Source: Chromatiaceae bacterium
Lineage (GTDB): Bacteria; Pseudomonadota; Gammaproteobacteria; Chromatiales; Chromatiaceae
Direction: 5' to 3'
DNA: 64,000 bases
Assembly (NCBI GenBank): GCA_024235255.1
Contig: JACKMT010000005.1
Coordinates: 39,836-103,835, forward strand
Shown here: piece after piece, positions 29,469-44,487 of the stretch
Layout: every line of letters begins with the position of its first letter
How positions within the stretch are numbered: position 1 is the stretch's first letter
Made by a program: the position numbers and the translations under genes
Notes under the pieces: generated by a model
The model's database searches: none
What the model saw: only the letters and a program-made list of their open reading frames with translations
Told to the model about the DNA's origin: nothing

Positions 29469-29504
29469 CCGGCACTCTGCGCCGTGTTGCTGAAAGAGGG
29501 CAGT

Positions 29505-29545
29505 AAAAAAGCGCCGTTCGGGGGTTGGTCCGACGGCGCTTTTTA
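29505..29545. terminator. bidirectional intrinsic terminator between the convergent ydgA-like gene and prk
   Basis: aaaaaa-gcgccgttcg-(loop)-cgacggcgc-ttttt: GC-rich stem flanked by an A-run and a T-run. Confidence 0.7.
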
Positions 29546-29569
29546 GACCCGTTCCCGATTTTTGTTCTG

Positions 29570-30442
29570 TTAGTGTCCTGCCTTCTCCATCATACGTTCG
29601 ATGATAGGTTGCAGTATTATCTCCATTGCAAAGCCCATTTTACCGCCGGGAACCACAAGCGAATTACGCCGCGACATAAATGATCCTTCAAGCATGGATA
29701 GCAGGAAAGGAAAGTCCGTATTCAGTTTTTTCGGATCGCGAAAACGGATGACAACGAAACTTTCGTCCGGCGTTGGAATGTCGCGCGCGATAAACGGGTT
29801 GGAGGTATCCACTGTCGGCACCCGCTGAAAGTTGATATCAGTGCGGGAGAACTGAGGCGTAATGTGGTTGATATAGTCGGGCATGCGCCGCAGGATGGTA
29901 TCGACGATTGCCTCCTCACTGTAGCCACGTTCTGCATTGTCGCGAAAAATTTTCTGAATCCACTCCAGATTGACGATCGGCACCACGCCCACGCCCAGAT
30001 CGACGTGCTGGGCGATATTGTATTGTTCGGTTACCGCGAGGCCGTGCAGTCCCTCATAGAAGAGCAGGTCGGTGCTGCTCTCCAACTCCTCCCAAGGGGT
30101 GAACTCACCGGCTTTTTTTTCGGTACCGAGACGCGCATTGTGCTCCTCGGCCTCTTCCTGGCTGTGCAGATAGTAGCGCTTCATCCCGGTACCGGTTTCG
30201 CCGTATGTCCGAAATAACTCTTCGAGTTTGTCGAAGCAGTTTGCGTCCGGGCCGAAGTGGCTTAAACCCTCAGTGATCTTCTGGCGCATCGCTGCCCGAT
30301 CGAAACAGTGGAAGCTGTCCCCTTCGACAACGGCAGGATTGAAGCCGTCACGGTAGAAAATATGCTCGAAAGCGCGCTTTACTGTGGTTGTTCCAGCGCC
30401 TGATGAGCCGGTAACCGCAATGACAGGATGCTGTGTGGACAT
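29570..30442 (-). CDS. prk: phosphoribulokinase
   Basis: MSTQHPVIAVTGSSGAGTTTVKRAFEHIF... P-loop and full-length similarity to bacterial PrkB/CbbP. Start at codon 10 of ORF 29570-30469. Confidence 0.93.
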   Translation of the reverse strand: MSTQHPVIAVTGSSGAGTTTVKRAFEHIFYRDGFNPAVVEGDSFHCFDRAAMRQKITEGLSHFGPDANCFDKLEELFRTYGETGTGMKRYYLHSQEEAEEHNARLGTEKKAGEFTPWEELESSTDLLFYEGLHGLAVTEQYNIAQHVDLGVGVVPIVNLEWIQKIFRDNAERGYSEEAIVDTILRRMPDYINHITPQFSRTDINFQRVPTVDTSNPFIARDIPTPDESFVVIRFRDPKKLNTDFPFLLSMLEGSFMSRRNSLVVPGGKMGFAMEIILQPIIERMMEKAGH

Positions 30443-30828
30443 GTTCATCTCCCTAAAGTGTTGCACCATGCTATCCAGCGATAACTGTATGATTAAACTG
30501 GAATAGTACCGATTCAGTCAGCCATGAAAACGCAACATACAAGTTCAAGGCATGGCAATCGAATTGCGGAATATATCACGAACCCAAAAAATCCTGACGA
30601 TCCCTGTGCTGATGATTGGCTAAGATAATTCTATGAAAAAAACTTTGGGAGGTTCCGGATAGAGCGCCGGGTTGCAGGCGAATTGGCGCCGTTGGTGGAG
30701 GAGCGACTGCACGGTATATCCGAAGCCAACTGTCGGTGTCCGGCAAAAGGGCGCGAACCGAGGTGTGATAACTAAAGGGAGTAGTGGCGTGCTGCTACCA
30801 ATAACCCGCAAATGCTGCTGAGCGGTTG

Positions 30829-30862
30829 GAGTTTCGCTGCTCTGGGGGGAGCAGCGAAACTC
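30829..30862. terminator. perfect 14-bp stem / 6-nt loop hairpin downstream of nhaD (no U-tract)
   Basis: gagtttcgctgctc tggggg gagcagcgaaactc, 47 nt beyond the nhaD stop. Confidence 0.4.
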
Positions 30863-30908
30863 GGACTAATAAAGGTGTATCCGGTTTGGTTTTCCGGCGA
30901 AATGCCTA

Positions 30909-32366
30909 TCAGAACATGCGCGAGTTGATCCAGAGGTGACTCAATATGCTCGCCGCATAGCCTAATGCGATCACCGGGGTCCATTTCAGATGGCCGAAGA
31001 AGGTGTATTTACCGCGTGCCTGGCCCATCAGCGCGACGCCCGCAGCCGACCCGATCGAGAGCAGGGAGCCGCCGACGCCGGCGGTGAGGGTTACCAGCAA
31101 CCACTGGCCCATGGCCATATCGGGCATCATGGTGAGCACCGCAAACATCACCGGAATGTTGTCGACGATGGCGGAGAGGAGGCCGACGATCACGTTGGCG
31201 TAGGTAGCGCCGAGGCCAACGTACATCAATTCAGACACCAGGGCCAGATAGCCGATGAAACCGAGACCGCCGACGCAGAGTACTACACCATAGAAGAAGA
31301 ACAGGGTGTCCCACTCCGCACGGGCAACTTTTCTGAACACGTCAAACGCGACCGGATCGCCCATTTGGGCGTCATGCTCCATTTCGGTCTCATCATCCAG
31401 CGAAAAGGGACGGTCCATGTGAAAGGTTTTCTTCAGGTAAAAGCCGAAGAACTGCAGGTATGCCAGGCCGGTGAGCATGCCGATGACCGGTGGCATGTGC
31501 AGGAAGTTGTGAAAGCTGACCGCGGTGGTGATGATCATCAGGAACAGGAAGATGATCCGTTTTGCGCCGCGCTTCATCGGAACCGCTTTACCCCCACCGG
31601 TGGGTTTCTCATTGGGCACCGCCATGATCATGAACGCTGCCGGCACGAACCAGTTGATCAGCGAAGGTATGAACAGGGCGAAGAAGGCCCAGAAATCGAC
31701 CACGCCCTGAGCCGTTGTCACGCCCTTTTGCCATACCATCAGCGTGGTGATATCGCCGAACGGACTGAATGCGCCGCCGGCATTTGCCGCCACCACGATA
31801 TTGATGCAGGCAAGCAGCACAAACTTGGTATTGTCGCCGCCCACTGCCATCACCACCGCGCACATCAGTAGCGCTGTAGTGAGGTTGTCGGCCACCGGCG
31901 AGATGAAGAAGGCCAAGATGCCGGTGATCCAGAACAGCGAGCGGAAGCCGAATCCTTTGCGCACCAGCCAGGAGCGCAGCGCCTCGAATACATTGCGTTC
32001 ATCCATTGCGTTGATATAGGTCATCGCCACCAGCAGGAACAACATCAGCTCGGCGTATTCGAGCAGATTGTGCCGAACTGCCTGTTCTGTGACATGGACA
32101 CCCAGCTCCGGATGGCTCTGATACACCATGGCGATGATTGCCCAGATGATGCCGGCGGCAAGGATGACCGGTTTCGATTTGCGCAGGTGGGTGAATTCTT
32201 CCGCCATGACCAGCCCGTAGGCCACCACAAATATGGCTATTGCGGTGTAACCCGCCCAGTGGTGGGTGAGATCCAGCCGGCTTCCGTCGCCGCCCGATGC
32301 CAGCGCAATGCCAGGGAGTGCAACTGAGAGAAACAGCAGGAGTAGCTTTTGAAGTGAATTGGTCAC
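30909..32366 (-). CDS. nhaD: Na+/H+ antiporter NhaD family
   Basis: 485-aa polytopic membrane ORF with signal-like N-terminus. HLRKSKPVILAAGIIW, DNLTTALL and AGGAFSPFGDITT segments typical of NhaD. Confidence 0.82.
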   Translation of the reverse strand: MTNSLQKLLLLFLSVALPGIALASGGDGSRLDLTHHWAGYTAIAIFVVAYGLVMAEEFTHLRKSKPVILAAGIIWAIIAMVYQSHPELGVHVTEQAVRHNLLEYAELMLFLLVAMTYINAMDERNVFEALRSWLVRKGFGFRSLFWITGILAFFISPVADNLTTALLMCAVVMAVGGDNTKFVLLACINIVVAANAGGAFSPFGDITTLMVWQKGVTTAQGVVDFWAFFALFIPSLINWFVPAAFMIMAVPNEKPTGGGKAVPMKRGAKRIIFLFLMIITTAVSFHNFLHMPPVIGMLTGLAYLQFFGFYLKKTFHMDRPFSLDDETEMEHDAQMGDPVAFDVFRKVARAEWDTLFFFYGVVLCVGGLGFIGYLALVSELMYVGLGATYANVIVGLLSAIVDNIPVMFAVLTMMPDMAMGQWLLVTLTAGVGGSLLSIGSAAGVALMGQARGKYTFFGHLKWTPVIALGYAASILSHLWINSRMF

Positions 32367-32601
32367 ATTAGGATCCTGAAATTATGATTTATTGTTGAAC
32401 GAATTTATAACAACAAACAACAGGCGGCTGCTCACCGCGTTTTTCATTGAAACAAAATTGTAATCAATATCAAAGCAACAGTGGTGTATTGATCCTTAAA
32501 TTAATCTGGGGCGGGCCACACTATACCCTTTAATCGGGTTAAGTGATTTATTAAATCCTAAAATTTATTTAAGCTGATCCATTTGTTGGGCGCTGGACCA
32601 G

Positions 32602-34077
32602 ATGGATTTTCCGGATATGGGCATTCTAACGCTGCTTTTGATGCTACCTTTATTCGGCGCTGCGCTGGTCGCTGCAATGCCGTCTGACTCGGAACGCGCA
32701 ATCCGGAGCATAGCACTTGTCACGGGGTTGCTGACACTGGCAATCGCCTGGGGCCTGCTGCTTAGTTTTGACGTCCAGCTGCACGGCATGCAGTTCGCTG
32801 AGATACATCGCTGGAACCCGCGCATGGGGACCTCTTTCGCCCTCGGGGTTGACGGCTTCTCCTTGCCGATGGTGCTGCTGGCCACGCTATTGAGCTTTGT
32901 CGCAATACTGGCGTCGGGCAATATCCGGCAGTCAACCAAGATCTATTATCTGCTGATGCTGGTGCTGGAAGCCGCCATGCTGGGCGTTTTCCTGGCGCAG
33001 GATTGGGCCCTTTTTTACGTCTTTTGGGAGCTGACGCTGATCCCGCTGTTTTTTCTCATCGATCGCTGGGGCGGTGCCAACCGCCACGGTGCGGCGCTCA
33101 ATTTCTTTCTCTATACAATGGGTGGGTCGGTTTTTTTACTCATCAGCCTGTTGGTGCTGTTTGATATCGTACCCGGCCACTCGTTTTCGATGGCCGAGAT
33201 TGCCAAAGTTGCTGCAGCGTTGCCCGAACAGACCCAGGTCCTGATTTTTCTCGGTTTTCTGCTTGGATTCGGTGTCAAGATGCCGATTTTTCCGATTCAC
33301 GGTTGGCTGCCGCTGGCTCATGTGGAGGCACCCAGCCCGGTCAGTATTCTGCTTTCCGGCATTCTGCTGAAGATGGGATCCTATGGTTTGATCCGGGCCA
33401 CCGGCACGCTGCCTGACGGGGTATCGGCGCTGCAGGGCGTGTTGATCGCGCTGGCGCTCGTCAGCCTGATCTACGGTGGATTGCTGGCCTGGCGGCAGAG
33501 TGACCTGAAGGCGATGATCGCCTACTCGTCGGTCAGCCATATGGGTGTAGTGCTGGTCGGGATCGCAGCGTTGAACGTGGCCGGCCTCACCGGCGCGGTC
33601 ATGCAGATGGTGGCCCACGGACTGGTAGCGGGTGCGCTGTTTCTGCTGATCGGCCTAATGTATGAACGGACCCACACCCGCAATATCGACGACTACAGCT
33701 CGCTGGTTCGGGTAACGCCCCGCTTTGCAGTGCTTACCACGCTGGCTTTTGTGGCTGCGGTGAGCCTGCCCGGAACCGTAGGCTTTATCGCTGAACTGCA
33801 CGCGCTGATCGGTGGGTTTCAGCGGTGGGGCTGGCTGGTGCTGCTGCTCAGCCTCGGTGTTATGATCAGCGCCGCTTACGCGATCCGTACAGTCGGCCGG
33901 CTGTTTACCGGACCGGTAAGCGCGCGTATGCGCCACATTCCGGATTTGCGCGGGGTGGAAATGGTCGCCGCCTCTGTGCTGACCGCCGGCATAGTGCTGT
34001 TGGGTCTCTTTCCCGCTCCGGCGTTGCGCCTGGTATCCGCTTCGGTCTCTCATTTCAGCTCGGTGTTCGGCGTCTGA
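32602..34077 (+). CDS. complex I subunit 4 (NuoM/MrpD/NdhD)-like antiporter-type membrane protein, first gene of the DabA operon
   Basis: 491-aa ORF. GVDGFSLPMVLL, FYVFWELTLIPLFFLI (TM5 Glu), GFGVKMPIFPIHGWLPLAHVEAP (TM7 Lys), LLKMGSYG, SVSHMG. The stop overlaps the dabA ATG (TGATG). Confidence 0.88.
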   Translation: MDFPDMGILTLLLMLPLFGAALVAAMPSDSERAIRSIALVTGLLTLAIAWGLLLSFDVQLHGMQFAEIHRWNPRMGTSFALGVDGFSLPMVLLATLLSFVAILASGNIRQSTKIYYLLMLVLEAAMLGVFLAQDWALFYVFWELTLIPLFFLIDRWGGANRHGAALNFFLYTMGGSVFLLISLLVLFDIVPGHSFSMAEIAKVAAALPEQTQVLIFLGFLLGFGVKMPIFPIHGWLPLAHVEAPSPVSILLSGILLKMGSYGLIRATGTLPDGVSALQGVLIALALVSLIYGGLLAWRQSDLKAMIAYSSVSHMGVVLVGIAALNVAGLTGAVMQMVAHGLVAGALFLLIGLMYERTHTRNIDDYSSLVRVTPRFAVLTTLAFVAAVSLPGTVGFIAELHALIGGFQRWGWLVLLLSLGVMISAAYAIRTVGRLFTGPVSARMRHIPDLRGVEMVAASVLTAGIVLLGLFPAPALRLVSASVSHFSSVFGV

Positions 34078-37000
34078 TGTCTGCGCCATCGCCTAAAGCA
34101 AAGGATATTCGCGACCAACTGAGGGAGGCGATCGGTCATTTCGAACACACGCTTCCAGGCCAGGCACCGATCCGGGACTTCGTCCATCACAATACACTTC
34201 ATGGCTTCCAGCACCTGCATTTTGCCGAGGCACTGGCTGCTGCGGAACGGCTTACCGGTGCGCGTGGATTTCTTGCACCTGATCAGTTCCGGGCGCTCTA
34301 CGCCGCAGGGCGTATAACGCAGGCGGATCTGCTGAAAGTGCTGCAAACGGATCCGGACTTGAATGCAGCGGAAGTCATCGCGTCCGCCGGGCAGCGCGAG
34401 TTGCGCCGACTGGATCTCTATCTGATTGCGTTGTTACATCCGCTGAAAGCGGTTACCGCCGGTCAGCTGAATTGGCAAATCGAGGAGCTGCAGGCGTTGC
34501 GCCGTTTCCAGTCCGATGTCGGGAAAGCTGATCGCAGCCGCTTGCTTGCTGCGGCTTGTAAAACCGGCACCGACGGCGAGGAGCCGGCGATAGCGGAGCT
34601 TTGGCATGCCTGCCTGGAGGGATTGGGACTTACCCACTACCTCTTGCATCCTGAAGATCTGGTCGATCTGTCGGCGGAGCAGGCGCAGAAGATGTTGCTG
34701 GATCTCATCGGTGAGGAGGAGAGCGCAGCACAGCCGGCCATGGATCGGCTGATCCGCAAGGAGTCGGAGCATCTGTTGAGCCAGTTGCTCGAACGCGTCG
34801 GCAGGGATCTGACCCTGGCCGGGTTTCTGCATGCTATTACCGGACACGACGTGCGGGAGGATCTACACCAGGATTTGCTGCGCCAGGTTGCGGGATATCT
34901 CGACCAGGGGGTCGCCTTCTGGCACAGCGCAACGGTTGCTGAAGGCTTCTATCAGGTATGGCGCCGTAACGCTTTCCAGGACCTCAACTGGGTATTTGAG
35001 GAGATGTCCGACTGGCGCAGCCACCTGGAGTCGCTGCCTGATGATCCCATAGAGACGATCGTAATGGAGCTGCGTCGGCTCGGTCTGCGGCAGGAGAAGT
35101 GGGCCGATTATCTGCAGCAGCTGGCGCTGGAGCTGCCGGGTTGGTCGGGTATGTTTCTTTGGCGCCACCAGCATCCCGGTGCTCCGGGAACAGAGTCCGT
35201 ACGGGTTGAGATGGTTGATTACCTGGCGGTGCGAATAGTGCTTGAGCATATGTATTGCCAGCGCCTGTGCAGTCAATTCTGGCAGCTGGAAGCGAATCTG
35301 GATCTGATCCGCTGGCGTTTTCGGCATTACAGCGCCGAATTTTTAGTCCGTTATTCCCTCTATAGCGCACGCCTGCCGGAGTATCTCGCGGACCTCGCGC
35401 AGCATTTGACCGAGCACAGTGCGCAGCATGGACCGGGTGAGGATGCCTGGTGGCATCTGGCGCATATGGTCAGTACCTGGCGCCAGAGCCCTGCCGCCGA
35501 TCGCCCCCTTGGACACAGTGTTTACCGCAGTGCCTGGCGTCTGTTCCGGCTGTCCCAACATCTCGGATTATGCGGCGCGGATATCCGTGCTCTGGAGCAG
35601 CCGCAACTGGAGGAGATGCTGGCGACAATTGAGCGTCTGGCTGCGCAGCAGCAGGGATTCATCTGGCTCCAGGCTTACGAACTTCAGTACCGCGACCGGC
35701 TGTTCAGCGCGCTGCTGGCCAACCGCGGGCGTGCGCCCGGGCGCGTTGTCGGTGCATTGGCACAACTGGTCTTCTGCATGGACGACCGGGAGGAGGGTTT
35801 CCGCCGTCACCTGGAAGAGATCGAACCCGGTGTGGAGACTTATGGCGGTGCTGCACATTTCAATGTTCCCAACATCTGGCGCGATCTGGATGGTGCGATA
35901 TCCAAACTGACTCCCGTGGTGGTGAAGCCGGTGCATGAGATCCGCGAAGTTCCCAGATCCGGCAGCGAGGCGTTACTGCGGCGGCGGATTGTCAGGCGCG
36001 CCCGCCGCTTCCGGCTCGGGCGTCTGCTGCACCAGGAGATGCGGCGCAATCTGTTCAGTTCAGTGCCGCTGATCGCGCTGGCGGCGCCGGGTGCGCTGCT
36101 CGCACTGCTGGGAAAACTGCTCTTCCCGTTGGGGTTCGGTATCCGGTCGTCGCGTCTGCGCCGTCGCTACGATCTGGAGGTGCCGACCAGGCTGGCGCTG
36201 ACCGCCGAAGATGGCGCTGCCGAGCCGACGCCCGAGCATCCGCGAAGCGGATTTACTGAAGTCGAGCAGTTGGACCGGATCGAGACGCTGCTGCGCAATA
36301 TCGGGTTGATCGATCGGTTTTCCCGGCTGGTGGTGATCATGGCGCACGGCTCCAGCAGCCAGAATAATCCGCATCTCGCCGCGTATGACTGCGGCGCCTG
36401 CAGCGGCCGCCACAGCGGGCCCAACGCGAGAATCGCCGCTGCCATCGCGAACCGGCCGGAGATTCGCCGGCGTCTCTCATCCGAGCGGGGTATTTCCATT
36501 CCTGCCACAACCTGGTTCATCGGAGCCGAACACAATACCTGTAGTGAGGCGATCGAATGGTACGACCTGCAGGATCTGCCAACCGGCCTGGTGGACGAGT
36601 TCACCCAGCTGCAGCGTTCATTGAACGAGGCGGGGCGCCGTCACGCGCACGAGCGCTGCCGGCGTCTGGCTTCGGCGCCTAAGTCGGCTAGCCTGGATCA
36701 GGCTTTGCGGCATGTGCAGAGGCGCGCCCTCGATTTCAGTCAGGCGCGTCCGGAGTTGGGGCATGCCACCAACGCGGCGGCTTTCGTCGGCCGCCGCTGT
36801 ATCAGCCGCGGCGTATTCTTCGACCGCCGGGTGTTTCTTATCTCCTATGACTACGCCACTGACCCGGATGGCAAGGTGCTCGAGCGCCTGCTGCTGGCCA
36901 ATGCGCCGGTCGGCGCGGGCATCAATCTGGAGTACTACTTCTCCACGGTGGACAACCGGCGCTACGGTTCCGGTTCCAAGGTGACGCATAACATAACCGG

Positions 37001-37370
37001 CCTGTTTGGCGTGATGGATGGCACTGCATCCGATTTACGCACCGGATTGCCGCTGCAGATGGTCGAGATACATGAGGCAATGCGGCTGCAGGTCGTGGTG
37101 GAGGCCAGTAGCGAGACGCTCAGTGTAATTTACCGCCGCCAGCCAGAGTTGCAGGAGCTGATCGGCAACGGCTGGATCCTGCTTTCGGTGCTGGATCCCG
37201 ACTCCGGCACGATCGCCGAGTTTAAACCCGATCAGGGTTTTGTTCCGTGGATTGGAGAGGCGGCCGCGACGCGCCGGGCGGCCAGCTCTGCCGACTGTTA
37301 CCGCGGTCAGAGCGGCCCGGTGGCGCCGGTTCTGGTAACCGCCGAATTGGCAGCGACCGATGTTGCATAG
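34077..37370 (+). CDS. dabA: DabA (DUF2309/PF10070) probable inorganic-carbon transporter subunit, 1097 aa
   Basis: MSAPSPKAKDIRDQLREAIGHFEHTLPGQAPIRDFVHHNTLHGF (family N-terminus). FCMDDREEGFRRHLE and MAHGSSSQNNPHLAAYDCGACSG give the Cys-x-Asp...His-x14-Cys beta-CA-like ligand set. Start chosen at the ATG overlapping the upstream stop, not at 33825. Confidence 0.9.
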   Translation: MSAPSPKAKDIRDQLREAIGHFEHTLPGQAPIRDFVHHNTLHGFQHLHFAEALAAAERLTGARGFLAPDQFRALYAAGRITQADLLKVLQTDPDLNAAEVIASAGQRELRRLDLYLIALLHPLKAVTAGQLNWQIEELQALRRFQSDVGKADRSRLLAAACKTGTDGEEPAIAELWHACLEGLGLTHYLLHPEDLVDLSAEQAQKMLLDLIGEEESAAQPAMDRLIRKESEHLLSQLLERVGRDLTLAGFLHAITGHDVREDLHQDLLRQVAGYLDQGVAFWHSATVAEGFYQVWRRNAFQDLNWVFEEMSDWRSHLESLPDDPIETIVMELRRLGLRQEKWADYLQQLALELPGWSGMFLWRHQHPGAPGTESVRVEMVDYLAVRIVLEHMYCQRLCSQFWQLEANLDLIRWRFRHYSAEFLVRYSLYSARLPEYLADLAQHLTEHSAQHGPGEDAWWHLAHMVSTWRQSPAADRPLGHSVYRSAWRLFRLSQHLGLCGADIRALEQPQLEEMLATIERLAAQQQGFIWLQAYELQYRDRLFSALLANRGRAPGRVVGALAQLVFCMDDREEGFRRHLEEIEPGVETYGGAAHFNVPNIWRDLDGAISKLTPVVVKPVHEIREVPRSGSEALLRRRIVRRARRFRLGRLLHQEMRRNLFSSVPLIALAAPGALLALLGKLLFPLGFGIRSSRLRRRYDLEVPTRLALTAEDGAAEPTPEHPRSGFTEVEQLDRIETLLRNIGLIDRFSRLVVIMAHGSSSQNNPHLAAYDCGACSGRHSGPNARIAAAIANRPEIRRRLSSERGISIPATTWFIGAEHNTCSEAIEWYDLQDLPTGLVDEFTQLQRSLNEAGRRHAHERCRRLASAPKSASLDQALRHVQRRALDFSQARPELGHATNAAAFVGRRCISRGVFFDRRVFLISYDYATDPDGKVLERLLLANAPVGAGINLEYYFSTVDNRRYGSGSKVTHNITGLFGVMDGTASDLRTGLPLQMVEIHEAMRLQVVVEASSETLSVIYRRQPELQELIGNGWILLSVLDPDSGTIAEFKPDQGFVPWIGEAAATRRAASSADCYRGQSGPVAPVLVTAELAATDVA

Positions 37371-38913
37371 TCTGGTTTGGCTGATCCCGCTGCTGCCGCT
37401 GCTGGCCGCCGGCTGGATCGGGCTGAGTATGGTCGTTGGTTGGCAGGCCGGTGAGCCCGGAGAGCGGGCGACCGCGCGGGTGGCGATGGTGGCGGTGCTG
37501 ATGCCGTTGCTGCTGCTGCTGCTGCTGGATATCAGCGCGTTGTTCCGGGCGGCGCCGGGACAGCTGGTGTTTGGGAGTTGGCTGGCCAGCGGGGATTACC
37601 GGATTCTGATCAGCTTCACGCTGGATGCGTTCGGGCTGTCAATGGCTACTCTGGTTGCGCTGATCTGTCTGCTGACGCTCGCCTTTTCTGTCGACTACAT
37701 GCACCGGGAGGCAGGATTTCAGCGCTTTTTCATGATCCTCAGCCTGTTTAGCGCGGCCATGTTGTTGCTGGTAACGGCGGGCAACGCGGTGCTCGCCTTT
37801 ATCGGCTGGGAGTTGGCCGGTGTCAGTTCTTATCTGCTGATCGGGTACGTTTATGAGCGAAAAACCGCTGGGGCAAATGCCACCCGTGCATTCGTCACCA
37901 ATAAAATCGGTGACACCGGATTCATTCTGGGCATTGCGCTCGGTTTTCTCTGGTTGGGAGGTGTCGAGTGGCCGCAAATGGCGACCGGCAGTGGCGAGGT
38001 GGAACCGCTGTTCAATGGGCTTATCGGTCTTGGGTTCCTGCTGGCGGCTTTGGTCAAATCCGCTCAGGTTCCGTTCACTCCTTGGATCAGCCGTGCGCTG
38101 GAAGGTCCGACACCCTCGAGTGCTGTGTTCTACGGATCGCTGATGGTGCATGCCGGGGTCTTCCTGGTAATTCGGCTGGAACCCCTCTTTGCTCAGGTAC
38201 AGGCGCTGCTGATCCTGGCTGGTCTGCTGGGCCTGATGACCGCGCTCTACGGCTGGCTCGTCGGTTTGGTCCAGACCGATATCAAGAGCGCGCTCATCTT
38301 TGCCACCATCGCCCAGGTGGGTTTGATGTTTCTGGAATGCGGTCTGGGCTGGTTCGAATTGGCCGCCTGGCACCTGGCACTGCATGCAGCATGGCGTAGT
38401 TATCAGTTTCTGCACGCACCCGCGCTACTGCAGCTGTTAAGCGGCCCCGGACCGTGCGCTCCCGCCTGGCTGCGTCGTCGGACACGCCTTCATGCAGCGG
38501 CGGTACAGCGTTTCTGGCTGGACGCCATGGCCGACTGGCTGCTGCTGCGGCCGACCCATGCACTGGCACAGGATCTACAGGATTTTGACCAACGGGTAGT
38601 GACACGGATGGTCGGGCTTCCCGACCAGGCAGGAAACCTGAACTCGCTGGCCCGCTGGGAAGCGCTGCGGCAGGGGCGTGGCGATGTCGACACCGCCGTC
38701 GGCCATGGTCGCGGCATGGCGGGCAGGCTGATGGAGTGGCTCGCCAAGGTTTTGTACTGGTTCGAAGAGCACCTGGTGCTGCAGGGTGCGGGCGAGGGCC
38801 TGAAGCGCGCCATCGATCTGCTCGGCGGTTATCTCAAGCGGATTGAAGAGCTGCTCGGTCAGCCGCGTTATCTGCTGCTGCTGATCATGGCCACCTTTGC
38901 GGTGATCATATGA
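37360..38913 (+). CDS. dabB: DabB-type NuoL/MrpA-like proton-conducting membrane subunit
   Basis: 517-aa ORF. SVDYMHREAGFQRFF, FIGWELAGVSSYLLIGY, AFVTNKIGDTGF, LVKSAQVPFTPWISRALEGPTP. NuoL-like N-terminal core without the long C-terminal lateral helix region. Overlaps dabA by 11 nt. Confidence 0.85.
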   Translation: MLHSLVWLIPLLPLLAAGWIGLSMVVGWQAGEPGERATARVAMVAVLMPLLLLLLLDISALFRAAPGQLVFGSWLASGDYRILISFTLDAFGLSMATLVALICLLTLAFSVDYMHREAGFQRFFMILSLFSAAMLLLVTAGNAVLAFIGWELAGVSSYLLIGYVYERKTAGANATRAFVTNKIGDTGFILGIALGFLWLGGVEWPQMATGSGEVEPLFNGLIGLGFLLAALVKSAQVPFTPWISRALEGPTPSSAVFYGSLMVHAGVFLVIRLEPLFAQVQALLILAGLLGLMTALYGWLVGLVQTDIKSALIFATIAQVGLMFLECGLGWFELAAWHLALHAAWRSYQFLHAPALLQLLSGPGPCAPAWLRRRTRLHAAAVQRFWLDAMADWLLLRPTHALAQDLQDFDQRVVTRMVGLPDQAGNLNSLARWEALRQGRGDVDTAVGHGRGMAGRLMEWLAKVLYWFEEHLVLQGAGEGLKRAIDLLGGYLKRIEELLGQPRYLLLLIMATFAVII

Positions 38914-40427
38914 CCTTTACCGAACTGCCCTGGGCCGTCCAGATAAACTATCCGATATTGGCGACGCTGCAGCTGCTGCCGCTGCTTGCGATGGCCGTGG
39001 CACTGGCATGGAACGGACGCCGGCATCTGCTCTGGGTGGGACTGTCTGCAGCTGCGCTGGAGCTGTTGCTGGCACTGGATCTTTACCTCACTTACGATCC
39101 CGGTACCGGGGCAATGCAGTTTGCGGAACGCCTGTCGTTGCTGGGACCGCTTGAATACCATGCCGCAGCCGATGGCATCACTGTGCTGTTCGTGTTGTTG
39201 AACGCACTGTTGACGCTGATGGTCGTGATCTATTCCGAGGCACGCCGGCTGCAGCCGCTCTCCCTTGTGCTGGCTGTTGTTTTTCTGGTTGAAGCGACAT
39301 TGATGAGTCTGCTGGTTTCGCTCAATCTGTTCTGGTTTCTGTTCATGTCCGCGGCTCAGTTTTTTCCCGTCGGTTATCTGATTTGGCGCTGGGCCAGCGC
39401 ACCGGAAAAAGACCTGGCGCTTACCCGTTTTCTGCAATTCATGGGGGTCGGCCTGGTGCTGCTGCTTGCCGGAACCCTAATGCTGGGACTCAATCATGCC
39501 GATGCCACAGGTCGCTGGAGCTTCGATCTCTTCGATCTGGCGGCAGTCGAGGTGCCGGCCGGAATGCTATCGGTTGTTTTTTTCCTGCTGTTTTACGGGC
39601 TTGGCCTGCGCACGCCGATATTCCCATTTCATGGATGGCTGCCGATTATTGCCGAACACGGCAGCATTGCTGTGGCACCGGTATTCCTGCTCGGATTAAA
39701 GACCGGGGTATACGGCATGCTGCGTTTCGTGTTTCCGCTGCTGCCGGAGGCGGTGCTGCAGTGGCACAGGTACATCGTTGCTTTTGCCCTGGCCGGCGTC
39801 TTCTATGCTGCTGTGATGGCGCTGTTGCAGGTCAACTTGCGCCGGCTGCTCGCGTTCGCGGTGGTCAGTCATACCAGCTTAATGGTCATCGGCCTGTTTA
39901 CGCTGGGTGAGTACTCGTTTGCCGGGAGCATCGTGCAGTCGGTCAATTTCGGGCTGGCTATTACCGGGCTGGTGTTCATGATCGGATTGATTCACCGGCG
40001 TACGCAGAGTGTGCTGCTCTCCCGACTGGGAGGGCTGTTCGATCTGCTGCCCCTGCTCGGCATCACCTTTCTGGTGGCGGGCCTGTCGATTATCGGTATG
40101 CCGGGGACCCCCGGGTTCGATGCCGTGCATCTGGTAATGGAGGATTCCATTCGCCGATTCGGGGCATTGGTTACCATTGCCGCGGCGCTGGGTAATGTGA
40201 TTGCGGCAGGTTTTCTGTTGCTGGCGTTCCAGCGGGCATTCCTCTCCCCGGCGTCGCCTGCCGAGGATATGCCCGAAATCGAACGCGCCAGCACTTTGGA
40301 GAAACTGGTATCGGCGTTGGTAATTCTGCTGCTTCTCGGCGGCGGATTCTATCTTGAACCCTGGTTGGCGCTGGTGGACGGTCCGGCGCAGCGCCTCAGT
40401 CTACTGTTTAATCCCGGGAGCGGTTGA
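38910..40427 (+). CDS. divergent NuoM/N-like antiporter-type membrane protein lacking the canonical TM5 Glu and TM7 Lys
   Basis: 505-aa ORF. PIFPFHGWLPIIAEHGS, LLGLKTGVYGMLRF and VVSHTSL identify the PF00361 fold. The TM5 motif reads LFWFLFMSAAQFF and the TM7 motif reads GLGLRTP. ATGA overlap with dabB. Confidence 0.8.
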   Translation: MTFTELPWAVQINYPILATLQLLPLLAMAVALAWNGRRHLLWVGLSAAALELLLALDLYLTYDPGTGAMQFAERLSLLGPLEYHAAADGITVLFVLLNALLTLMVVIYSEARRLQPLSLVLAVVFLVEATLMSLLVSLNLFWFLFMSAAQFFPVGYLIWRWASAPEKDLALTRFLQFMGVGLVLLLAGTLMLGLNHADATGRWSFDLFDLAAVEVPAGMLSVVFFLLFYGLGLRTPIFPFHGWLPIIAEHGSIAVAPVFLLGLKTGVYGMLRFVFPLLPEAVLQWHRYIVAFALAGVFYAAVMALLQVNLRRLLAFAVVSHTSLMVIGLFTLGEYSFAGSIVQSVNFGLAITGLVFMIGLIHRRTQSVLLSRLGGLFDLLPLLGITFLVAGLSIIGMPGTPGFDAVHLVMEDSIRRFGALVTIAAALGNVIAAGFLLLAFQRAFLSPASPAEDMPEIERASTLEKLVSALVILLLLGGGFYLEPWLALVDGPAQRLSLLFNPGSG

Positions 40428-41932
40428 AGGTGCAGGCGAACGTCAGCGGTTTCCCTTTTCTCAGCGCCATGCTGCTGGTGCTGCTGGCAGCGGCTGTGTT
40501 GATTTGGCTGTTTCGGGATGCGCGTCAGGCCAGGTGGGTGGCATTGGGCGCCACTGCGCTGGATCTGCTGGTAACGCTGGCAATGTTATGGCGCTTCGAC
40601 TCCGCAAACCAGGGTTTTCAGTTCGTCGAACGGATGCAGTGGATTCCCACGCTACACATCAGTTATCTGGTCGGAGTGGACGGCATATCGATATTGTTTC
40701 TGCCAATGACTCAGCTGCTGTTTCTCGGGGTGATCGTCGCCTCCTGGAGCAGTGTGCGCGCCATGGTACAGCTCTACTTCAGTCTGCTGTTGCTGCTGGA
40801 AACAGTAACCCTGGGTATTTTTTGTGCGCTGGATACTATCCTGTTCTTCCTGTTCTGGGAGATGACGCTGCTGCCGCTCTACTTTCTGATCAGTCTCTGG
40901 GGAATTGGGCCCAACCGTCGTTATGCAGCACTTAATTACACGCTGTTCATGTTGGCTGGCGGGGTGCCGCTGCTGTTCGGCATCCTGTTATTGGCTTTTA
41001 ACCATGCAGCGGTTACCGGCACCGGCATTCCGGAGGGATTGGCCTTCGGTTATCTGCAACTCTTCCAGATAGCGGTACCCGAGGGTACCCAGACCCTGAT
41101 CTTTCTGCTGTTGCTGGCAGGGTTTGCAGTTAAGACACCCCTGATCCCGTTGCATACTTGGCTACCGGTAGTGGCACAGGAGGGGCCGGTGGCGATAGCG
41201 GCGTTGCTCACCGGTTTGAAACTGGGCGCCTACGGCCTACTCAGATTTGTTGTTCCACTGGCGCCGCAGGCAGCTTTGGAATTTCACTGGCTGCTCTCCG
41301 GTCTGGGTGTGGCAGGCATACTTTACGGTGCAGTGCTTGCCATCCGTCAGACCAATCTCAGACGTATGCTCGCCTTTTCCAGTATCAGTCATGTTGGGCT
41401 GGTTATATTGGGTATTGCCTCTTTTACGCTGCAGGGTATTCAGGGTGCGTTGTTCCAACTGCTCAATTTTACTGTAGTCGCCGGGGGCGTTTACCTGCTG
41501 GCCGGATTTCTGCATCACCGGATCGGTTCCACTGATCTTCTGCATCTGGGAGGAGTGGCCCGGAGCATGCCCTTACTGGCAAGTTTCTTTCTGTTCTTTG
41601 GCCTGACCGGTATGGGCGTACCCGGCACCTCCGGATTCCCGGCTGAGTTCCTGATCCTTGTGAGCGCCATTACTACCCATACCGGTGCCGGTCTTGCCGC
41701 GCTATTCGGGGTGGTGCTTGGCGCCGGTTATTTTCTCAGCATCTACCGGCAGGCGTTTCTGGGGCCGGTTACCAGCGATGCGGTCGTTGATGCACCGGAC
41801 CTGCGAATGCGCGAACTGCTGCTGGTTTGTGCCTATGCGCTACTGATATTGCTCGGGGGTTTATATCCATCCGGGGTATTGGATCTAACCAGAGCAGCCA
41901 GTGAAACATGGTTGGCCAGATTGATATCCTGA
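40424..41932 (+). CDS. NuoM/MrpD-like antiporter-type membrane protein, last gene of the DabA operon
   Basis: 502-aa ORF. GVDGISILFLPMT, LFFLFWEMTLLPLYFLI, GFAVKTPLIPLHTWLPVVAQEGP, GLKLGAYG, SISHVG. TTG start (or GTG at 40430) overlapping the upstream stop. Confidence 0.87.
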   Translation: MKVQANVSGFPFLSAMLLVLLAAAVLIWLFRDARQARWVALGATALDLLVTLAMLWRFDSANQGFQFVERMQWIPTLHISYLVGVDGISILFLPMTQLLFLGVIVASWSSVRAMVQLYFSLLLLLETVTLGIFCALDTILFFLFWEMTLLPLYFLISLWGIGPNRRYAALNYTLFMLAGGVPLLFGILLLAFNHAAVTGTGIPEGLAFGYLQLFQIAVPEGTQTLIFLLLLAGFAVKTPLIPLHTWLPVVAQEGPVAIAALLTGLKLGAYGLLRFVVPLAPQAALEFHWLLSGLGVAGILYGAVLAIRQTNLRRMLAFSSISHVGLVILGIASFTLQGIQGALFQLLNFTVVAGGVYLLAGFLHHRIGSTDLLHLGGVARSMPLLASFFLFFGLTGMGVPGTSGFPAEFLILVSAITTHTGAGLAALFGVVLGAGYFLSIYRQAFLGPVTSDAVVDAPDLRMRELLLVCAYALLILLGGLYPSGVLDLTRAASETWLARLIS

Positions 41933-42121
41933 TTAAAACGATCGATTCGACATGAGCATCGGTTCGGCGGTTAAGAATTAGTAAATCAGCAAACAATCAT
42001 GCACGACGTTGATCTGGCTCAAGCTTCGCCATACCTATCTGTTTTATGCTTTTAATAAACAAGTTGATTACTGTCTTATGTATGGATGGGGGCTTTAATA
42101 ACCTGAAACGGAGGTATCGAG

Positions 42122-42439
42122 ATGTTCAAGACTAAACGTTTTTTCGCAGCTGCTCTGATCGCTTCCGCTGCCTTGGCGCCGTTGGCAGCCGATGCATGGT
42201 GGGGCTTTCCGTTCGGGGGAGGACCCTGGAGCGATGGCTGGGGCGGGCCTTGGGGTGGAGGACCTTGGGGTGGAGGACCTTGGGGTGGAGGACCTTGGGG
42301 TTATCCAGGTTACGGCTACGGTTATCCCGGCTATGGGTACGGCTATCCCGCTTACGGCTACGGCTACCCGGCTTATGGCTACCAGCCGTTCGGCTACCCC
42401 TACTATGCGCCTGCCGCGACGACTAGCGAGAAAAAGTAG
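42122..42439 (+). CDS. sulfur globule protein-like secreted Gly/Trp/Tyr/Pro repeat protein
   Basis: 105-aa ORF. Signal peptide ending ADA, then WWGFPFGGGPW, (GGGPW)x3-4 and (GYGYP)n repeats. RBS ggagg upstream. Resembles the Sgp/CV proteins of purple sulfur bacteria. Confidence 0.78.
   Translation: MFKTKRFFAAALIASAALAPLAADAWWGFPFGGGPWSDGWGGPWGGGPWGGGPWGGGPWGYPGYGYGYPGYGYGYPAYGYGYPAYGYQPFGYPYYAPAATTSEKK
42248..42301 (+). repeat. perfect 15-bp tandem repeat (ccttggggtggagga, about 3.6 copies) inside the sgp-like CDS
   Basis: Direct reading of 42241-42301. In frame, encodes the GGGPW units. Followed by imperfect ~21-bp GYGYGYP-coding repeats to ~42385. Confidence 0.9.
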
Positions 42440-42711
42440 CCTAGCTGACTGAATGAATACCTGCCCGCCTGTGAACTGAGTGCTTCCGGCGGGTGGGTAT
42501 GGAGCGGCCTTTCCAGCGTTTATGAGTACGTGCTATGGCCGTTGCACCGGTACCAGATAATTCCACTGCATGGTTATGAGTGAGTATCGCTGCCGGTTGC
42601 ATATCCCTCTAAACAAAAGATAATCATAATATTCTGTTTCGATTTTCCTGCCGCACCAGGATCTCTCTGCTTTCCGGTAGGCTTCACTGGGTAGTATTTT
42701 AGGATAAGTTC

Positions 42712-44460
42712 TTGAACTGGATTTTAGAAATACTCAGGTCAGTACCCGGACGCTTCACGCCTTTCTTCGCTTGGATCGGTCAACTGCGAAACAGCGATAC
42801 GCTGAGGGCTGATTTGATAGCCGGTATCACCGTTGCGTTGGTGCTCATCCCGCAGTCCATGGCCTATGCGCAGTTGGCCGGATTACCGGCTTATTATGGG
42901 CTCTATGCCTCCTTCCTGCCGCCGATTGTTGCCGCCCTGTTCGGCTCCTCGTATCAGCTCGCGACCGGGCCGGTGGCAGTAGTGTCACTGCTCACCGCTG
43001 CTTCTTTGCACCCACTTGCGGCAACCGGAACGGCAGGATTTGTTGCATATGCAATCCTGCTGGCAGTAATGGTCGGTATTTTTCAGATGACACTCGGTTT
43101 TCTAAGGCTCGGCGTGGTAGTGGATCTGCTTTCCCACCCGGTGGTGGTCGGCTTTACCAATGCCGGAGCGTTGATCATTGCGACCTCCCAGCTGGGCAAG
43201 CTTTTCGGAGTCACTGCGGCAAAAGCCGAACACCACTATGAGACGGTTCACAATACGCTGCTGGCGGCGATGGATCAAACCCACTGGCCCACGTTTTGGA
43301 TGGCAGTGCTGGCACTTACCCTGATGCTCGGAATGAAGCGCTATTTCCCCAAACTTCCCAACGTGCTGGTGGCAGTGGCGCTGACAACACTGCTCTCATG
43401 GGTCACGCGATTCGAGCTGGCAGGCGGCAGCGTAGTGGGGAGAATTCCCGAGGGACTGCCTGGGTTCTCCCTGCCCCATTTCGACTTCAGCATTATGGGG
43501 CAGTTGGTTACCAGCGCGGTAGTGATTGCGTTGATCGGATTCATGGAGGCGATCGCCATTGCTAAGGCTATGGCGGCGAAAACCAGACAGCGTCTGGATA
43601 CCAACCAGGAGTTGGTCGGACAGGGGCTGAGCAATGTCGTCTCCGGCCTGTTTTCCGGCTACCCCGTCTCAGGTTCTTTTTCGCGCTCGGCAGTGAATAT
43701 CGATGCCGGCGCAAGAACCGGTTTTTCCTCCGTCGTTACCGGTATTGTCGTTGCTGTCGCACTGTTGTTTCTTACGCCGCTGCTTTACCATCTGCCCAAC
43801 GCTACGCTGGGAGCGGTGATCATCCTGGCGGTAGTCAATCTGGTAAAAGTTCAACCGGTGATTCACGCCTGGAAAGCGGAACACCAGGATGGCGTTATTT
43901 CGGTCATTACCTTCGTGCTCACGCTTATTCTGGCACCGCACCTGGAGTGGGGCATAGTTACCGGGGTGGGCCTTTCGATACTGCTGTTCTTTATCCGCTC
44001 CATGCGCCCGCGGGTTGCGGAACTCTCCCGTTACAGTGACGGGACAATGCGCGATATCTCGGTGCACCGGCTGCCGACCAGCGAGAAAATCGCCGTGGTA
44101 CGCTTCGACGGTTCGCTCTATTTTGGCAATGCCGGTTATTTTGAAGACAAGATACTCGAAGTGGTTGCGTCAAAGCCGGCGTTGAAATACATCATCATAG
44201 ACGGTGAAGGGATCAATCAGCTGGATTCGACGGGTGAGGAGGTGCTGCATCACCTGGCCGAGCGTCTGCAGAGCAACGGCATTCATATTCTGGTGGCGCG
44301 TATGAAGAAGCAGTTTATGGATACCATCCGCGCGACCGGACTTATTGAGAAAATGGGTGAGCGGCACTTCTTCGCCCGGATACAGAATGCGCTGGACTAT
44401 GCCTGGGATTCGCTTGGTGAATCCTATGACCGGAGAGCCTGTCCATTGCGCCGTCAGTAG
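42712..44460 (+). CDS. SulP-family anion transporter with C-terminal STAS domain
   Basis: 582-aa ORF. DLIAGITVALVLIPQSMAYAQLAGLPAYYGLYASFLPPIV, sulfate-transporter core, C-terminal STAS (VVRFDGSLYFGNAGYF...IIIDGEGINQLDSTG). TTG start. Confidence 0.9.
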   Translation: MNWILEILRSVPGRFTPFFAWIGQLRNSDTLRADLIAGITVALVLIPQSMAYAQLAGLPAYYGLYASFLPPIVAALFGSSYQLATGPVAVVSLLTAASLHPLAATGTAGFVAYAILLAVMVGIFQMTLGFLRLGVVVDLLSHPVVVGFTNAGALIIATSQLGKLFGVTAAKAEHHYETVHNTLLAAMDQTHWPTFWMAVLALTLMLGMKRYFPKLPNVLVAVALTTLLSWVTRFELAGGSVVGRIPEGLPGFSLPHFDFSIMGQLVTSAVVIALIGFMEAIAIAKAMAAKTRQRLDTNQELVGQGLSNVVSGLFSGYPVSGSFSRSAVNIDAGARTGFSSVVTGIVVAVALLFLTPLLYHLPNATLGAVIILAVVNLVKVQPVIHAWKAEHQDGVISVITFVLTLILAPHLEWGIVTGVGLSILLFFIRSMRPRVAELSRYSDGTMRDISVHRLPTSEKIAVVRFDGSLYFGNAGYFEDKILEVVASKPALKYIIIDGEGINQLDSTGEEVLHHLAERLQSNGIHILVARMKKQFMDTIRATGLIEKMGERHFFARIQNALDYAWDSLGESYDRRACPLRRQ

Positions 44461-44487
44461 CGGTTTCAGAATCTCTTTGTTATCCGG

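Follow-up and report, generated by a model that had tools for sequence, protein, structure and literature searches.

The DAB family of dissolved inorganic carbon (DIC) pumps has been described in fused (one-subunit), two-subunit and three-subunit forms. In DAB2 of Halothiobacillus neapolitanus, as in Tcr_0853/0854 and MpsAB, the catalytic subunit DabA (PF10070) is encoded beside a NuoL-derived membrane subunit (PF00361/PF00662), while DAB1 of Thermocrinis albus and H. neapolitanus consists of DabA, DabB and DabC. The first-pass annotation of a 64,000-nucleotide stretch of a Chromatiaceae bacterium genome (GenBank assembly GCA_024235255.1, contig JACKMT010000005.1, positions 39,836 to 103,835; hereafter the window, meaning the whole stretch) took the described systems to be two-component and pointed to an operon in which dabA is accompanied by four antiporter-like genes. 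Here we examine this operon, whose products are referred to, in gene order, as M1, DabA, DabB (or B), M2 and M3. The locus is likely to encode a stand-alone five-subunit DIC pump, a vectorial carbonic anhydrase of the DAB family, which probably spends several ions per CO2.

The locus resembles DAB2 in its PF10070 DabA, which shares the Zn-site motifs and has a predicted hairpin, in the placing of dabA beside the gene for a NuoL-derived subunit and in its presumed function, gradient-driven CO2 hydration. It differs in having five genes rather than two, with three extra NuoM-type subunits. In the window dabA lies upstream of dabB, the encoded DabA is about 270 aa longer, and DabB, which has 15 transmembrane (TM) helices in DAB2, is truncated by the loss of TM12-14. 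DAB1 is closer in two respects, its long DabA (1,046 aa in H. neapolitanus) and the further membrane subunit beside DabB at the NuoM position. In the cryo-electron microscopy (cryo-EM) structure of the DAB1 preprint, DabC takes the place that NuoM has beside NuoL, lacks the polar pathway residues and is essential; M2 of the window likewise lacks the key proton-pathway glutamates. DabC, however, is a half-size hydrophobic protein with no Pfam match, whereas its counterpart in the window is a full-length PF00361 protein accompanied by two further charge-bearing modules. No small DabC-type open reading frame (ORF) is present in the ORF list of the window operon.

Part of this layout has been seen before by neighbourhood analysis. 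In the COGNAT study (Klimchuk et al. 2017; PMC5700660), "clade C" ybcC (dabA) operons place ybcC upstream of a nuoL homolog and often hold COG1008 (NuoM) and COG0659 (SulP) nearby, and it was suggested that more membrane subunits may move more ions. That one-paragraph observation predates the function of DabA, assumes the opposite direction of ion movement and does not resolve M1, M2 and M3, their residues or the DabB clamp described below (PMC5700660). The initial view that the architecture is not a characterised system is correct, but the layout had been noticed before. No experimental, structural or expression work on the five-gene type was found, including in papers on symbionts and sulfur oxidisers, in a search whose coverage did not include Desmarais 2019 and Schmid 2021. 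Because the layout is kept and widespread and has only partial bioinformatic precedent, we regard it as a variant of the DAB kind that is itself uncharacterised. DIC uptake is the function expected for the DAB family, and the architecture is not wholly unknown.

A conserved five-gene operon

The coordinates and lengths of the five ORFs (Table 1) agree with those first annotated. M1 and dabA meet at TGATG (34075-34079), dabA and dabB overlap by 11 nt (37360-37370) and dabB and M2 share ATGA (38910-38913). The longest dabA ORF begins at a GTG farther upstream than the ATG of the 1097-aa version. M3 may start either at TTG 40424, which gives the 4-nt TTGA overlap (40424-40427) originally reported for the last junction, or at GTG 40430, which leaves a 2-nt gap; the M2/M3 junction is tight both ways, and the overlap holds only for the TTG start. 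By the ORF list, there is no room inside the operon for small Nuo or Mrp subunits and no small-subunit ORF is found there, and a Pfam scan of the larger ORFs of the window revealed no Nuo or Mrp genes, bearing out the reported absence of proteins like NuoA/H/J/K and MrpB/C/E/F/G. Searches with PF10070, PF00361 and subfamily models confirmed one DabA and four PF00361 subunits.

One genome per GTDB species was scanned, yielding at least 582 relatives, and the 80 closest loci (47-77% DabA identity) were taken for comparison. All ORFs of these loci were classified against the window proteins; 65 loci were assessable and 15 were cut by contig ends or gaps. The order M1-A-B-M2-M3 is kept in 62 of the 65 assessable species-level loci: 60 are plain cases, L022 is complete with a frameshifted B, and L074 is complete with a second A-B pair. 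Real exceptions number three (L043, L044 and L048). Junctions, compared in 57 loci, are mostly overlaps or gaps of no more than 20 nt, with A and B overlapping in 46 of the 57. The claim of a single operon is therefore upheld by the tight junctions here and in the related loci, together with the kept gene order. Beyond these relatives, a search of 1.84 billion representatives gave 4,148 DabA clusters at 50% identity, and the neighbourhoods of distant representatives were sampled. The five-gene layout recurs in distant metagenomic contigs (P0302, at 35% DabA identity, P0261, P0275 and P0259; range 35-47%). Since the order is kept in 62 of 65 loci and at DabA identities down to 35%, the adjacency of the five genes is non-random. 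Conservation of the layout in related genomes had been set beforehand as a test, and the layout is conserved both in these loci and in the distant contigs. Fortuitous adjacency, or recent recruitment of Nuo paralogs, is excluded by the kept order and distant recurrence, together with the position-specific clades and missed equivalog cut-offs given below.

Comparison with the two closest relatives gives ratios of nonsynonymous to synonymous substitution rates (dN/dS) of 0.07-0.16 across the five genes, at dS values close to saturation; all five are under purifying selection. At least 1,399 DabA homologs were found, and the best 120 are all about 1,090-1,140 aa long. Judged by record title, the carriers among the 80 closest loci are overwhelmingly sulfur-oxidising Gammaproteobacteria and chemosynthetic symbionts. 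They include Chromatiaceae, Sedimenticolaceae, Candidatus Thiodiazotropha and symbionts of Solemya and lucinids, as well as Thiohalomonas, Thiohalophilus, Thiogranum, Acidiferrobacterales, Thiothrix and other Thiotrichales, Candidatus Venteria, Sulfuricella and Sulfurimicrobium. The five-gene operon is real and widespread in sulfur oxidisers and animal symbionts.

Two of the exceptional loci call for comment. L043 (contig JAIVTC010000400.1) is binned as "Candidatus Bathyarchaeota archaeon", and its matches to the window proteins have nearly the same identity and extent as those of L044, which belongs to a gammaproteobacterial metagenome-assembled genome (Sva-25); the archaeal label is probably a binning error. 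L048 is apparently a decaying locus and has a SulP gene on the opposite strand.

DabA of the window matches PF10070 with 769.8 bits over profile positions 3-747 of 747, and its sole sequence match in the PDB is DabA2 (9rd0_A, E 6.6e-72). The predicted Zn-ligand positions C567, D569, H757 and C772 correspond in alignment to the DabA2 motifs FCIDVRSE and HGSS..NNPH..DCGAC and are invariant in a 75-sequence alignment. For the AlphaFold2 (AF2) model (pLDDT 80, pTM 0.76), the only significant fold match in a library without 9rd0 was the beta-carbonic anhydrase (beta-CA) CsoSCA (2fgy_A). Hydropathy shows a single strongly hydrophobic segment (665-683), and helices are predicted at 631-657, 663-682 and 684-698, a position that aligns with the finger region of DabA2. 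In the DAB cryo-EM papers the hairpin of DabA2 and DabA1 inserts into DabB. The lid motif reads GGAAHFN in the window and GFAGFFG in DabA2. From these alignments, DabA is a DAB/DAC-family catalytic subunit with a predicted beta-CA-type Zn site.

The antiporter-like subunits

M1 and M3 give 233 and 208 bits with PF00361 and 497 and 450 bits, respectively, with the NDH_I_M subfamily model TIGR01972 (cut-off 264 bits). M2 scores 114 bits with PF00361, 277 bits with TIGR01972 and 144 bits against E. coli NuoM (EcNuoM). Only this broad subfamily cut-off is passed; none of M1, M2 and M3 passes the NuoM equivalog cut-offs of NCBIfam, and the DabB-like subunit does not reach those for NuoL. The best PDB matches of M1 are NuoM, ND4, NdhD1 and NdhD3, with NdhD1 and NdhD3 scoring nearly as high as NuoM, and the best match of M3 is NuoM. 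These PDB scores place M1 and M3 nearest to NuoM/ND4/NdhD and make M2 a divergent NuoM; there is no N-type or MrpD-type subunit among M1, M2, M3 and B. The 505-aa M2, first called NuoM/N-like, is thus a degenerate NuoM type and not an N type, as both PDB scores and residue alignment indicate.

With the MrpD and MrpA models the subunits score at most about 166 bits, far below the cut-offs, as against 250-500 bits with NuoM and NuoL types; scores with Hyf and NdhF3 models are also far lower. This bears on the proposal that the operon encodes an Mrp-like ion pump or antiporter for ion or pH homeostasis or charge generation, with CO2 hydration or HCO3- dehydration by DabA as the proton source or sink. 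The Mrp (Mnh/Pha) antiporters are likewise redox-independent assemblies of several PF00361 subunits, MpsAB of S. aureus was first described as membrane-potential-generating or Na+-linked, and an NhaD Na+/H+ antiporter recurs beside the operon. The COGNAT authors proposed that an exergonic YbcC (DabA) reaction drives outward ion transfer, more subunits moving more ions (PMC5700660). The window subunits, however, are of NuoM and NuoL type rather than MrpD/MrpA type, and every Mrp small subunit (MrpB/C/E/F/G) is missing. Characterised DABs use up a gradient to accumulate DIC, and the carriers are mostly sulfur-oxidising Gammaproteobacteria and chemosynthetic symbionts, with a phosphoribulokinase (PRK) gene in the window itself. 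CO2 hydration lies near equilibrium and offers little free energy, which also counts against an ion pump driven by it. We consider this explanation very unlikely and favour DIC uptake.

For a survey of functional residues, 60-71 orthologs of each paralog were aligned with E. coli NuoL, NuoM and NuoN and read against NuoM positions E144, K234, K265, H322, H348 and E407. M1 has the full NuoM set (E143, K226, K257, H313, H339 and E398), all invariant in 71 orthologs. In M3 (E146, K237, K266, H323, F349 and E408) the TM11 histidine is replaced by phenylalanine, and the residues are invariant or nearly so in 60 orthologs. M2 (Ala148, Arg234, K264, H321, F347 and Val406; 62 orthologs) has lost the TM5 and TM12 glutamates and carries arginine in place of the TM7 lysine. 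Within M2, Arg234, K264 and H321 are invariant, the TM5 position is variable (A/T/F/G) and the TM12 position is Val or Ala, followed by an invariant H407. This signature also holds in the distant five-gene loci, and M2 always comes directly after DabB. The single M of A-B-M systems has the same hallmark, a non-acidic TM5 residue together with the TM7 arginine. The dN/dS values are about 0.08-0.10 for M1 and 0.07-0.13 for M2; the latter, together with the invariant Arg234, K264, H321 and H407, exclude a decaying pseudogene. Because M1 is complete, M3 lacks one histidine and M2 is degenerate, the operon probably has two or three conducting modules plus a connector, as judged from these residues, and not the four energising modules first envisaged.

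In a distance-based tree (200 bootstrap replicates, support scored as bipartitions), all position-1 (M1-type) subunits group at 96% and all after-B (M2-type) subunits of five-gene loci at 89%, and all DAB M subunits together with EcNuoM are split from NuoN and NuoL at 90%. In pairwise comparisons M1, M3 and EcNuoM are about equidistant (34-36% identity), and M2 is nearest to M3 (35%). The first-pass annotation had named a grouping of the extra M subunits with a Nuo or Mrp complex from elsewhere as grounds for abandoning its reading; what is found instead is M1-type and M2-type clades of their own and no score above the equivalog cut-offs.

The 517-aa DabB-like protein has PF00662 in addition to PF00361 and is therefore L-type. 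NuoL models of NCBIfam match only over positions ~3-350. Its PDB scores are 197 bits for NdhF1, 159 bits for EcNuoL and 105 bits for DabB2, so that the subunit first named NuoL-like DabB is closer to NuoL/NdhF1 (160-197 bits) than to DabB2. NdhF3 scores lower (86 bits with 6tjv_F and 132 bits with the family model, cut-off 589). Hydropathy indicates about 11 TM segments up to residue ~325, an amphipathic or hydrophilic stretch of ~160 aa and a terminal TM segment at 499-517. An AF2 model built from a 74-sequence alignment is confident at residues 1-400 and superposes on NuoL, NdhF and ND5 at ~2 A over ~360 columns, with TM1-11 superposing on NuoL. Residues E151, D185, K233, H264 and R346 are invariant, and the NuoL-like TM11 motif H338/H342/R346 is kept; the equivalent TM11 His/Arg residues touch the active-site motif of DabA in the DAB1 structure (DAB1 preprint).

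The likeness of DabB to NdhF1 and NuoL, and the NdhD1/NdhD3 scores of M1, could also be read as signs of a plug-in for respiratory NDH-1, in which DabA, DabB and the M subunits would replace NuoL and NuoM on a Nuo core from another locus and CO2 hydration would be powered by redox-coupled proton pumping instead of the membrane potential alone. The model for this would be cyanobacterial NDH-1MS/MS' (CupA/B with NdhF3/4 and NdhD3/4), in which a CA-like protein rides on the L-type end of an L/M chain inside NDH-1 and carries out vectorial CO2 hydration. CupA is unrelated to DabA, however, and no Cup-family match was found for the window operon proteins; NDH-1MS is driven by redox chemistry and, as an NDH-1, includes the subunits N, H, A, J and K. 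Four antiporter-like subunits exceed a whole complex I arm, yet they include no N-type, and DabB lacks TM12-14. M1 and M2 form dedicated clades co-inherited with DabA. DAB1 and DAB2 work in CA-free E. coli and are sensitive to CCCP, with no redox involvement reported. No nuo genes were detected near the operon, either among the larger ORFs of the window or, by homology to window genes, among the nearest neighbours of the 80 loci. We judge such a plug-in improbable and return to the stand-alone pump.

An alignment of five-gene and three-gene B proteins with E. coli NuoL showed that the NuoL TM12-15 region is missing from the five-gene B proteins, which run on directly into a segment alignable with the start of the NuoL lateral helix HL (QRFWLDAMADWLLLRP vs NAWGFDWLYDKVFVKPF). 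After this HL-like start they add about 70 residues and a TM segment that aligns with NuoL TM16. In contrast, B proteins of three-gene A-B-M systems (440-467 aa) end after the first HL segment and have neither the ~70-aa extension nor the anchor. In one five-gene locus (L089) the B protein, of 678 aa, has both TM12-15 and the extension. The mean helical moment of the DabB C-terminal part is 0.32, compared to 0.25 for NuoL HL and 0.16 for TM regions, and the last two helices reach 0.49 and 0.61. In complex I variants HL carries an insertion of ~26 aa for each added pumping subunit (PMC9040806, citing Chadwick et al. 2018). When five-gene and three-gene systems are compared, a longer DabB extension and an anchor go together with additional M subunits, suggesting that the DabB C-terminus may be a clamp across the M subunits.

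The same correlation counts against a third explanation, that the genes are co-regulated but their products separate, with a DabA-DabB heterodimer doing the work and M1, M2 and M3 forming an independent transporter or helping in assembly or regulation. DabAB2 needs no further subunit for activity, rare loci hold M1-A-B without M2 and M3, and Thiothrix L074 has two A-B pairs and one M set, all of which would suit separate units. Against these stand the order and tight junctions kept over very deep divergence, the loss of charges from M2, which is better suited to a chain connector than to a free transporter, and the NuoM-like DabC of DAB1, which is bound to DabB and essential. Moreover, we know of no antiporter-like PF00361 subunit that acts alone. 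Separate units are, in our estimation, quite unlikely, and an assembled five-subunit pump is preferred.

A proposed membrane arm

In the model that we favour, DabA, as a cytoplasmic Zn-dependent beta-CA-like subunit with a membrane-inserting hairpin, would dock on the DabB derived from NuoL, in the manner of the solved DAB1 and DAB2 structures, and the three NuoM-type subunits would lengthen DabB sideways into a complex-I-like membrane arm. M2 would be the direct partner of DabB, a degenerate connector at the DabC/NuoM position; M3 and M1 would be the modules with intact charge pathways, and the HL-like amphipathic helices and terminal TM anchor of DabB would clamp the arm. The gene order B-M2-M3 parallels nuoL-M-N and therefore may mirror the physical order. 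Ions, most likely H+, would flow inward through M1, M3 and a channel formed by DabB and the DabA hairpin, and through the chain of buried charges this flow would gate the DabA active site, so that CO2 diffusing in would be hydrated irreversibly to HCO3-, as proposed for DAB1 and DAB2. With two or three conducting channels instead of one, more free energy would be spent per CO2; one H+ at 150-180 mV corresponds to about 15-17 kJ/mol, roughly RT ln(1000). The extra driving force might let bicarbonate be accumulated where external CO2 is low, where the pH is near-neutral to alkaline or where the membrane potential is low. The pump would work in a DIC toolkit with a SulP transporter, and NhaD would handle the attendant Na+/H+ balance.

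The arm of complex I, including its 2M and five-pump variants, offers a parallel: linear L and M modules, a Glu/Lys/Lys/His/Glu pathway, and a lateral helix and anchor that lengthen with the number of modules. The window operon differs in having no Q-module, no NuoH/A/J/K and no N-type subunit, in its truncated L-type subunit and in CO2 hydration in place of quinone reduction. A free-standing arm of a truncated L, a degenerate connector and two intact M modules, held by an HL-like clamp and with carbonic anhydrase as its only head, is an idea that we put forward tentatively, at slightly less than even likelihood. As for the vectorial CA expanded by a stand-alone membrane arm that was initially proposed, the kept layout, the dedicated clades and the DabB extension and anchor speak for it, while its assembly and function stay conditional.

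Several observations weigh against this model. DAB2 is active with DabA and DabB alone (Desmarais preprint), so that extra subunits are dispensable for basic activity. L043 and L044 have M1-A-B followed by a NupC-like gene, with M2 and M3 missing, and in L048 (3626-10916) M1 is split by a frameshift and B, M2 and M3 are gone, while tblastn shows an intact DabA. The tree does not recover the M3-type subunits as a clade. The loss of charges from M2 might break the coupling rather than pass it on, and DabB, without the TM12 half-channel, may not conduct ions itself. The C-terminal helices of DabB (387-418, 428-437, 453-472, 480-498 and 502-516) are modelled with low pLDDT; the clamp is accordingly proposed from sequence. 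No RuBisCO or carboxysome genes were found by the Pfam scan among the larger ORFs of the window. Finally, we infer, from comparison with the known systems, the physical assembly of the five proteins and the order of subunits, as well as the ion (H+ or Na+), its direction and the stoichiometry.

Neighbouring genes and other DAB layouts

Features of the window are collected in Table 1. The SulP/STAS protein, a candidate bicarbonate transporter, scores 467 bits with TIGR00815 and does not reach the BicA equivalog cut-off. Among the nearest flanking genes of the 80 loci (116 scanned), SulP/STAS (14) and NhaD (13) are the commonest. In 11 loci a SulP gene sits no more than 150 nt upstream of M1, on the same strand; in the distant loci L088, L089, L091 and L092 SulP adjoins the operon or overlaps with it. 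NhaD homologs adjoin the operon in about 15 of the 80 loci, and PRK occurs within 10 kb in 8. In Candidatus Thiodiazotropha, Sulfuricella and others, though not in the window, a convergent gene of ~355-370 aa lies just 3' of M3 and matches CsoSCA_cat (about 26 bits, over the Pfam cut-off) or LCIB_C_CA; this gene possibly encodes a carbonic-anhydrase-like, non-carboxysomal partner for the pump. The SulP, NhaD, PRK and CA-like neighbours are consistent with a role in DIC acquisition.

Table 1. Features of the window (positions 1 to 64,000) and of a gene in related loci
Feature	Position	Strand	Length and basis
M1, NuoM-type antiporter-like subunit	32602-34077	+	491 aa; ORF list, PF00361
DabA, cytoplasmic beta-carbonic-anhydrase-like catalytic subunit	34077-37370	+	1097 aa from ATG; PF10070
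DabA segment with predicted Zn-site codons and hairpin	35775-36392	+	alignment to DabA2, AF2 helices
Predicted Zn-site codon C567	35775-35777	+	DabA2 alignment
Predicted Zn-site codon D569	35781-35783	+	DabA2 alignment
Predicted Zn-site codon H757	36345-36347	+	DabA2 alignment
Predicted Zn-site codon C772	36390-36392	+	DabA2 alignment
Predicted membrane-inserting helical hairpin of DabA, residues ~631-698	35967-36170	+	AF2 helices, hydropathy
DabB-like subunit (B), truncated NuoL/NdhF type	37360-38913	+	517 aa; PF00662, PF00361
DabB C-terminal part, HL-like helices and TM anchor (499-517), residues ~372-517	38473-38910	+	NuoL alignment, hydrophobic moment
M2, degenerate NuoM-type subunit	38910-40427	+	505 aa; PF00361
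M3, NuoM-type subunit	40424-41932	+	502 aa; PF00361
SulP/STAS anion transporter, candidate bicarbonate transporter; outside the core operon	42712-44460	+	582 aa; PF00916, PF01740
NhaD-type Na+/H+ antiporter, divergent from operon	30909-32366	-	NF038006 NhaD_1, 634 bits
Phosphoribulokinase, Calvin-cycle context	29570-30469	-	PF00485, 215 bits
orf105, secreted protein with Gly/Trp/Tyr-rich repeats	42122-42439	+	105 aa; own Shine-Dalgarno, signal peptide
IS110-family transposase among housekeeping genes	6687-7820	+	PF01548, PF02371
Putative ORF, overlaps ends of two minus-strand ORFs	16145-18631	+	828 aa; no Pfam match at E<=1e-5
CsoSCA-like/LCIB-like gene of related loci	L046:18017-19135, L056:18276-19337, L050:17850-18911, L055:18032-19096, L054:12657-13772	-	~355-370 aa; Pfam

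Between M3 and the SulP gene lies orf105, with repeats of the type GPWGGGPWGGG...GYGYGYPGYGYGYP, no Pfam or NCBIfam match and a GC hairpin on its 3' side; the DNA is 70-73% conserved and stands at the same position in L001, L002 and L005. It is excluded as a missing small subunit by being a secreted repeat protein with its own Shine-Dalgarno sequence that is kept only in the closest relatives; we presume a resemblance to the sulfur-globule envelope proteins (Sgp) of Chromatiaceae. No Rfam match for a regulatory RNA was found in 29000-46000, no inverted repeats were found between NhaD and M1, and a scan of the locus for consensus promoters and terminators was uninformative. The larger ORFs in the rest of the window are, by Pfam, common chromosomal genes: dnaG, tsaD, folK, the IS110 transposase, dxs, PRK, NhaD, SulP, glcD-like, zwf, pgl and asnB.

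Other arrangements of DAB genes were seen among the sampled distant representatives. P0283, P0300 and P0312 show an A-B-M layout, in which SulP is usually part of the operon; this layout belongs to a large sister group of DabA clusters (L087:6207-13972, L091:8001-15711, L092:4630-13710); L092 has an extra half-length PF10070 gene (580 aa) upstream. A MpsC-A-PII-B layout with a DabB of 594 aa is found in P0344 (L090:7403-13459). In P0272 (L086:7407-11720), a 1,437-aa DabA with an N-terminal extension of ~600 aa adjoins a MpsC (PF10057) gene. A scan of metagenomes with a back-translated DabA motif, which is not specific to DAB1, recovered B-B-M-A loci of a different DabA lineage (L171:1074-9173, L107, L116, L122 and L151), in which two L-type subunits (~568 aa each) and a 437-439-aa protein with weak PF00361 (34 bits) precede DabA, and B-M-A loci (L094, L153 and L155). 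With several layouts that contain multiple antiporter-like subunits, multi-antiporter DAB operons are therefore common, in several forms. L074 (8505-23102; Thiothrix sp. STA_22) has the order M1-A-B-A'-B'-M2-M3, with two divergent DabA-DabB pairs in tandem, A' being 43% and A 51% identical to the window DabA; this suggests that alternative catalytic modules share one M set.

In T. albus, DabC is fused to DabB (DAB1 preprint, Supplementary Table 6), and fused DabB-DabC proteins were also found in the metagenome scan (L113 and L125, 760 aa; L172, 858 aa). The L172 tail shows clear homology to the last ~260 residues of NuoM-type subunits (E about 1e-19 with the M1 and M3 profiles) and is a very close match to the 437-aa M found in B-B-M-A loci (E about 1e-60). 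Shorter Aquificae-type tails match the 437-aa family in hhalign (73% probability, 196 columns), and this family matches M1, M2 and M3 at 96-99%, thus bridging NuoM-type subunits and DabC-like tails; hhalign found no significant match of the Aquificae-type tails to M1, M2 or M3 directly. These profile comparisons give only transitive support to the view of DabC as a vestigial M-type module. The narrower proposal that DabC is a truncated M2 finds no such support: direct profile comparison with M2, M1 or M3 was not significant.

Two cryo-EM studies of 2026 do not settle the role of DabC or the way in which ion flow is linked to the buried active site. The five-gene clade would put full-length, recognisable NuoM modules at the DabC position and beyond, so that complex I can serve as a direct guide to the roles of their residues. 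It offers an entry point to DAB coupling through the division of labour among M1, M2 and M3, the truncated L with its kept clamp, the graded architectures and the prevalence in symbionts. A redox-free antiporter chain that drives, or is driven by, CO2 hydration would be a simple setting in which to probe coupling over long range and what the lateral helix does. For engineering CO2-concentrating mechanisms into crops and industrial microbes DABs are candidate components, and a variant with a higher driving force could behave differently at low CO2.

The carriers among the 80 closest loci include many sulfur oxidisers of sediments, wastewater and groundwater, together with symbionts of lucinid and solemyid clams (Candidatus Thiodiazotropha, Sedimenticola and Solemya symbionts), whose DIC acquisition is nowhere linked to DABs in the literature searched. 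If the free-standing arm is real, these organisms would hold a natural minimal chain of antiporter-like modules coupled over long range to a simple non-redox reaction, with an outlay of two to three ions for each CO2. The gain or loss of complex-I-like modules by the DAB family would then be recorded in the series A-B, A-B-M2-type and M1-A-B-M2-M3, in which DabC would stand as a vestigial M.

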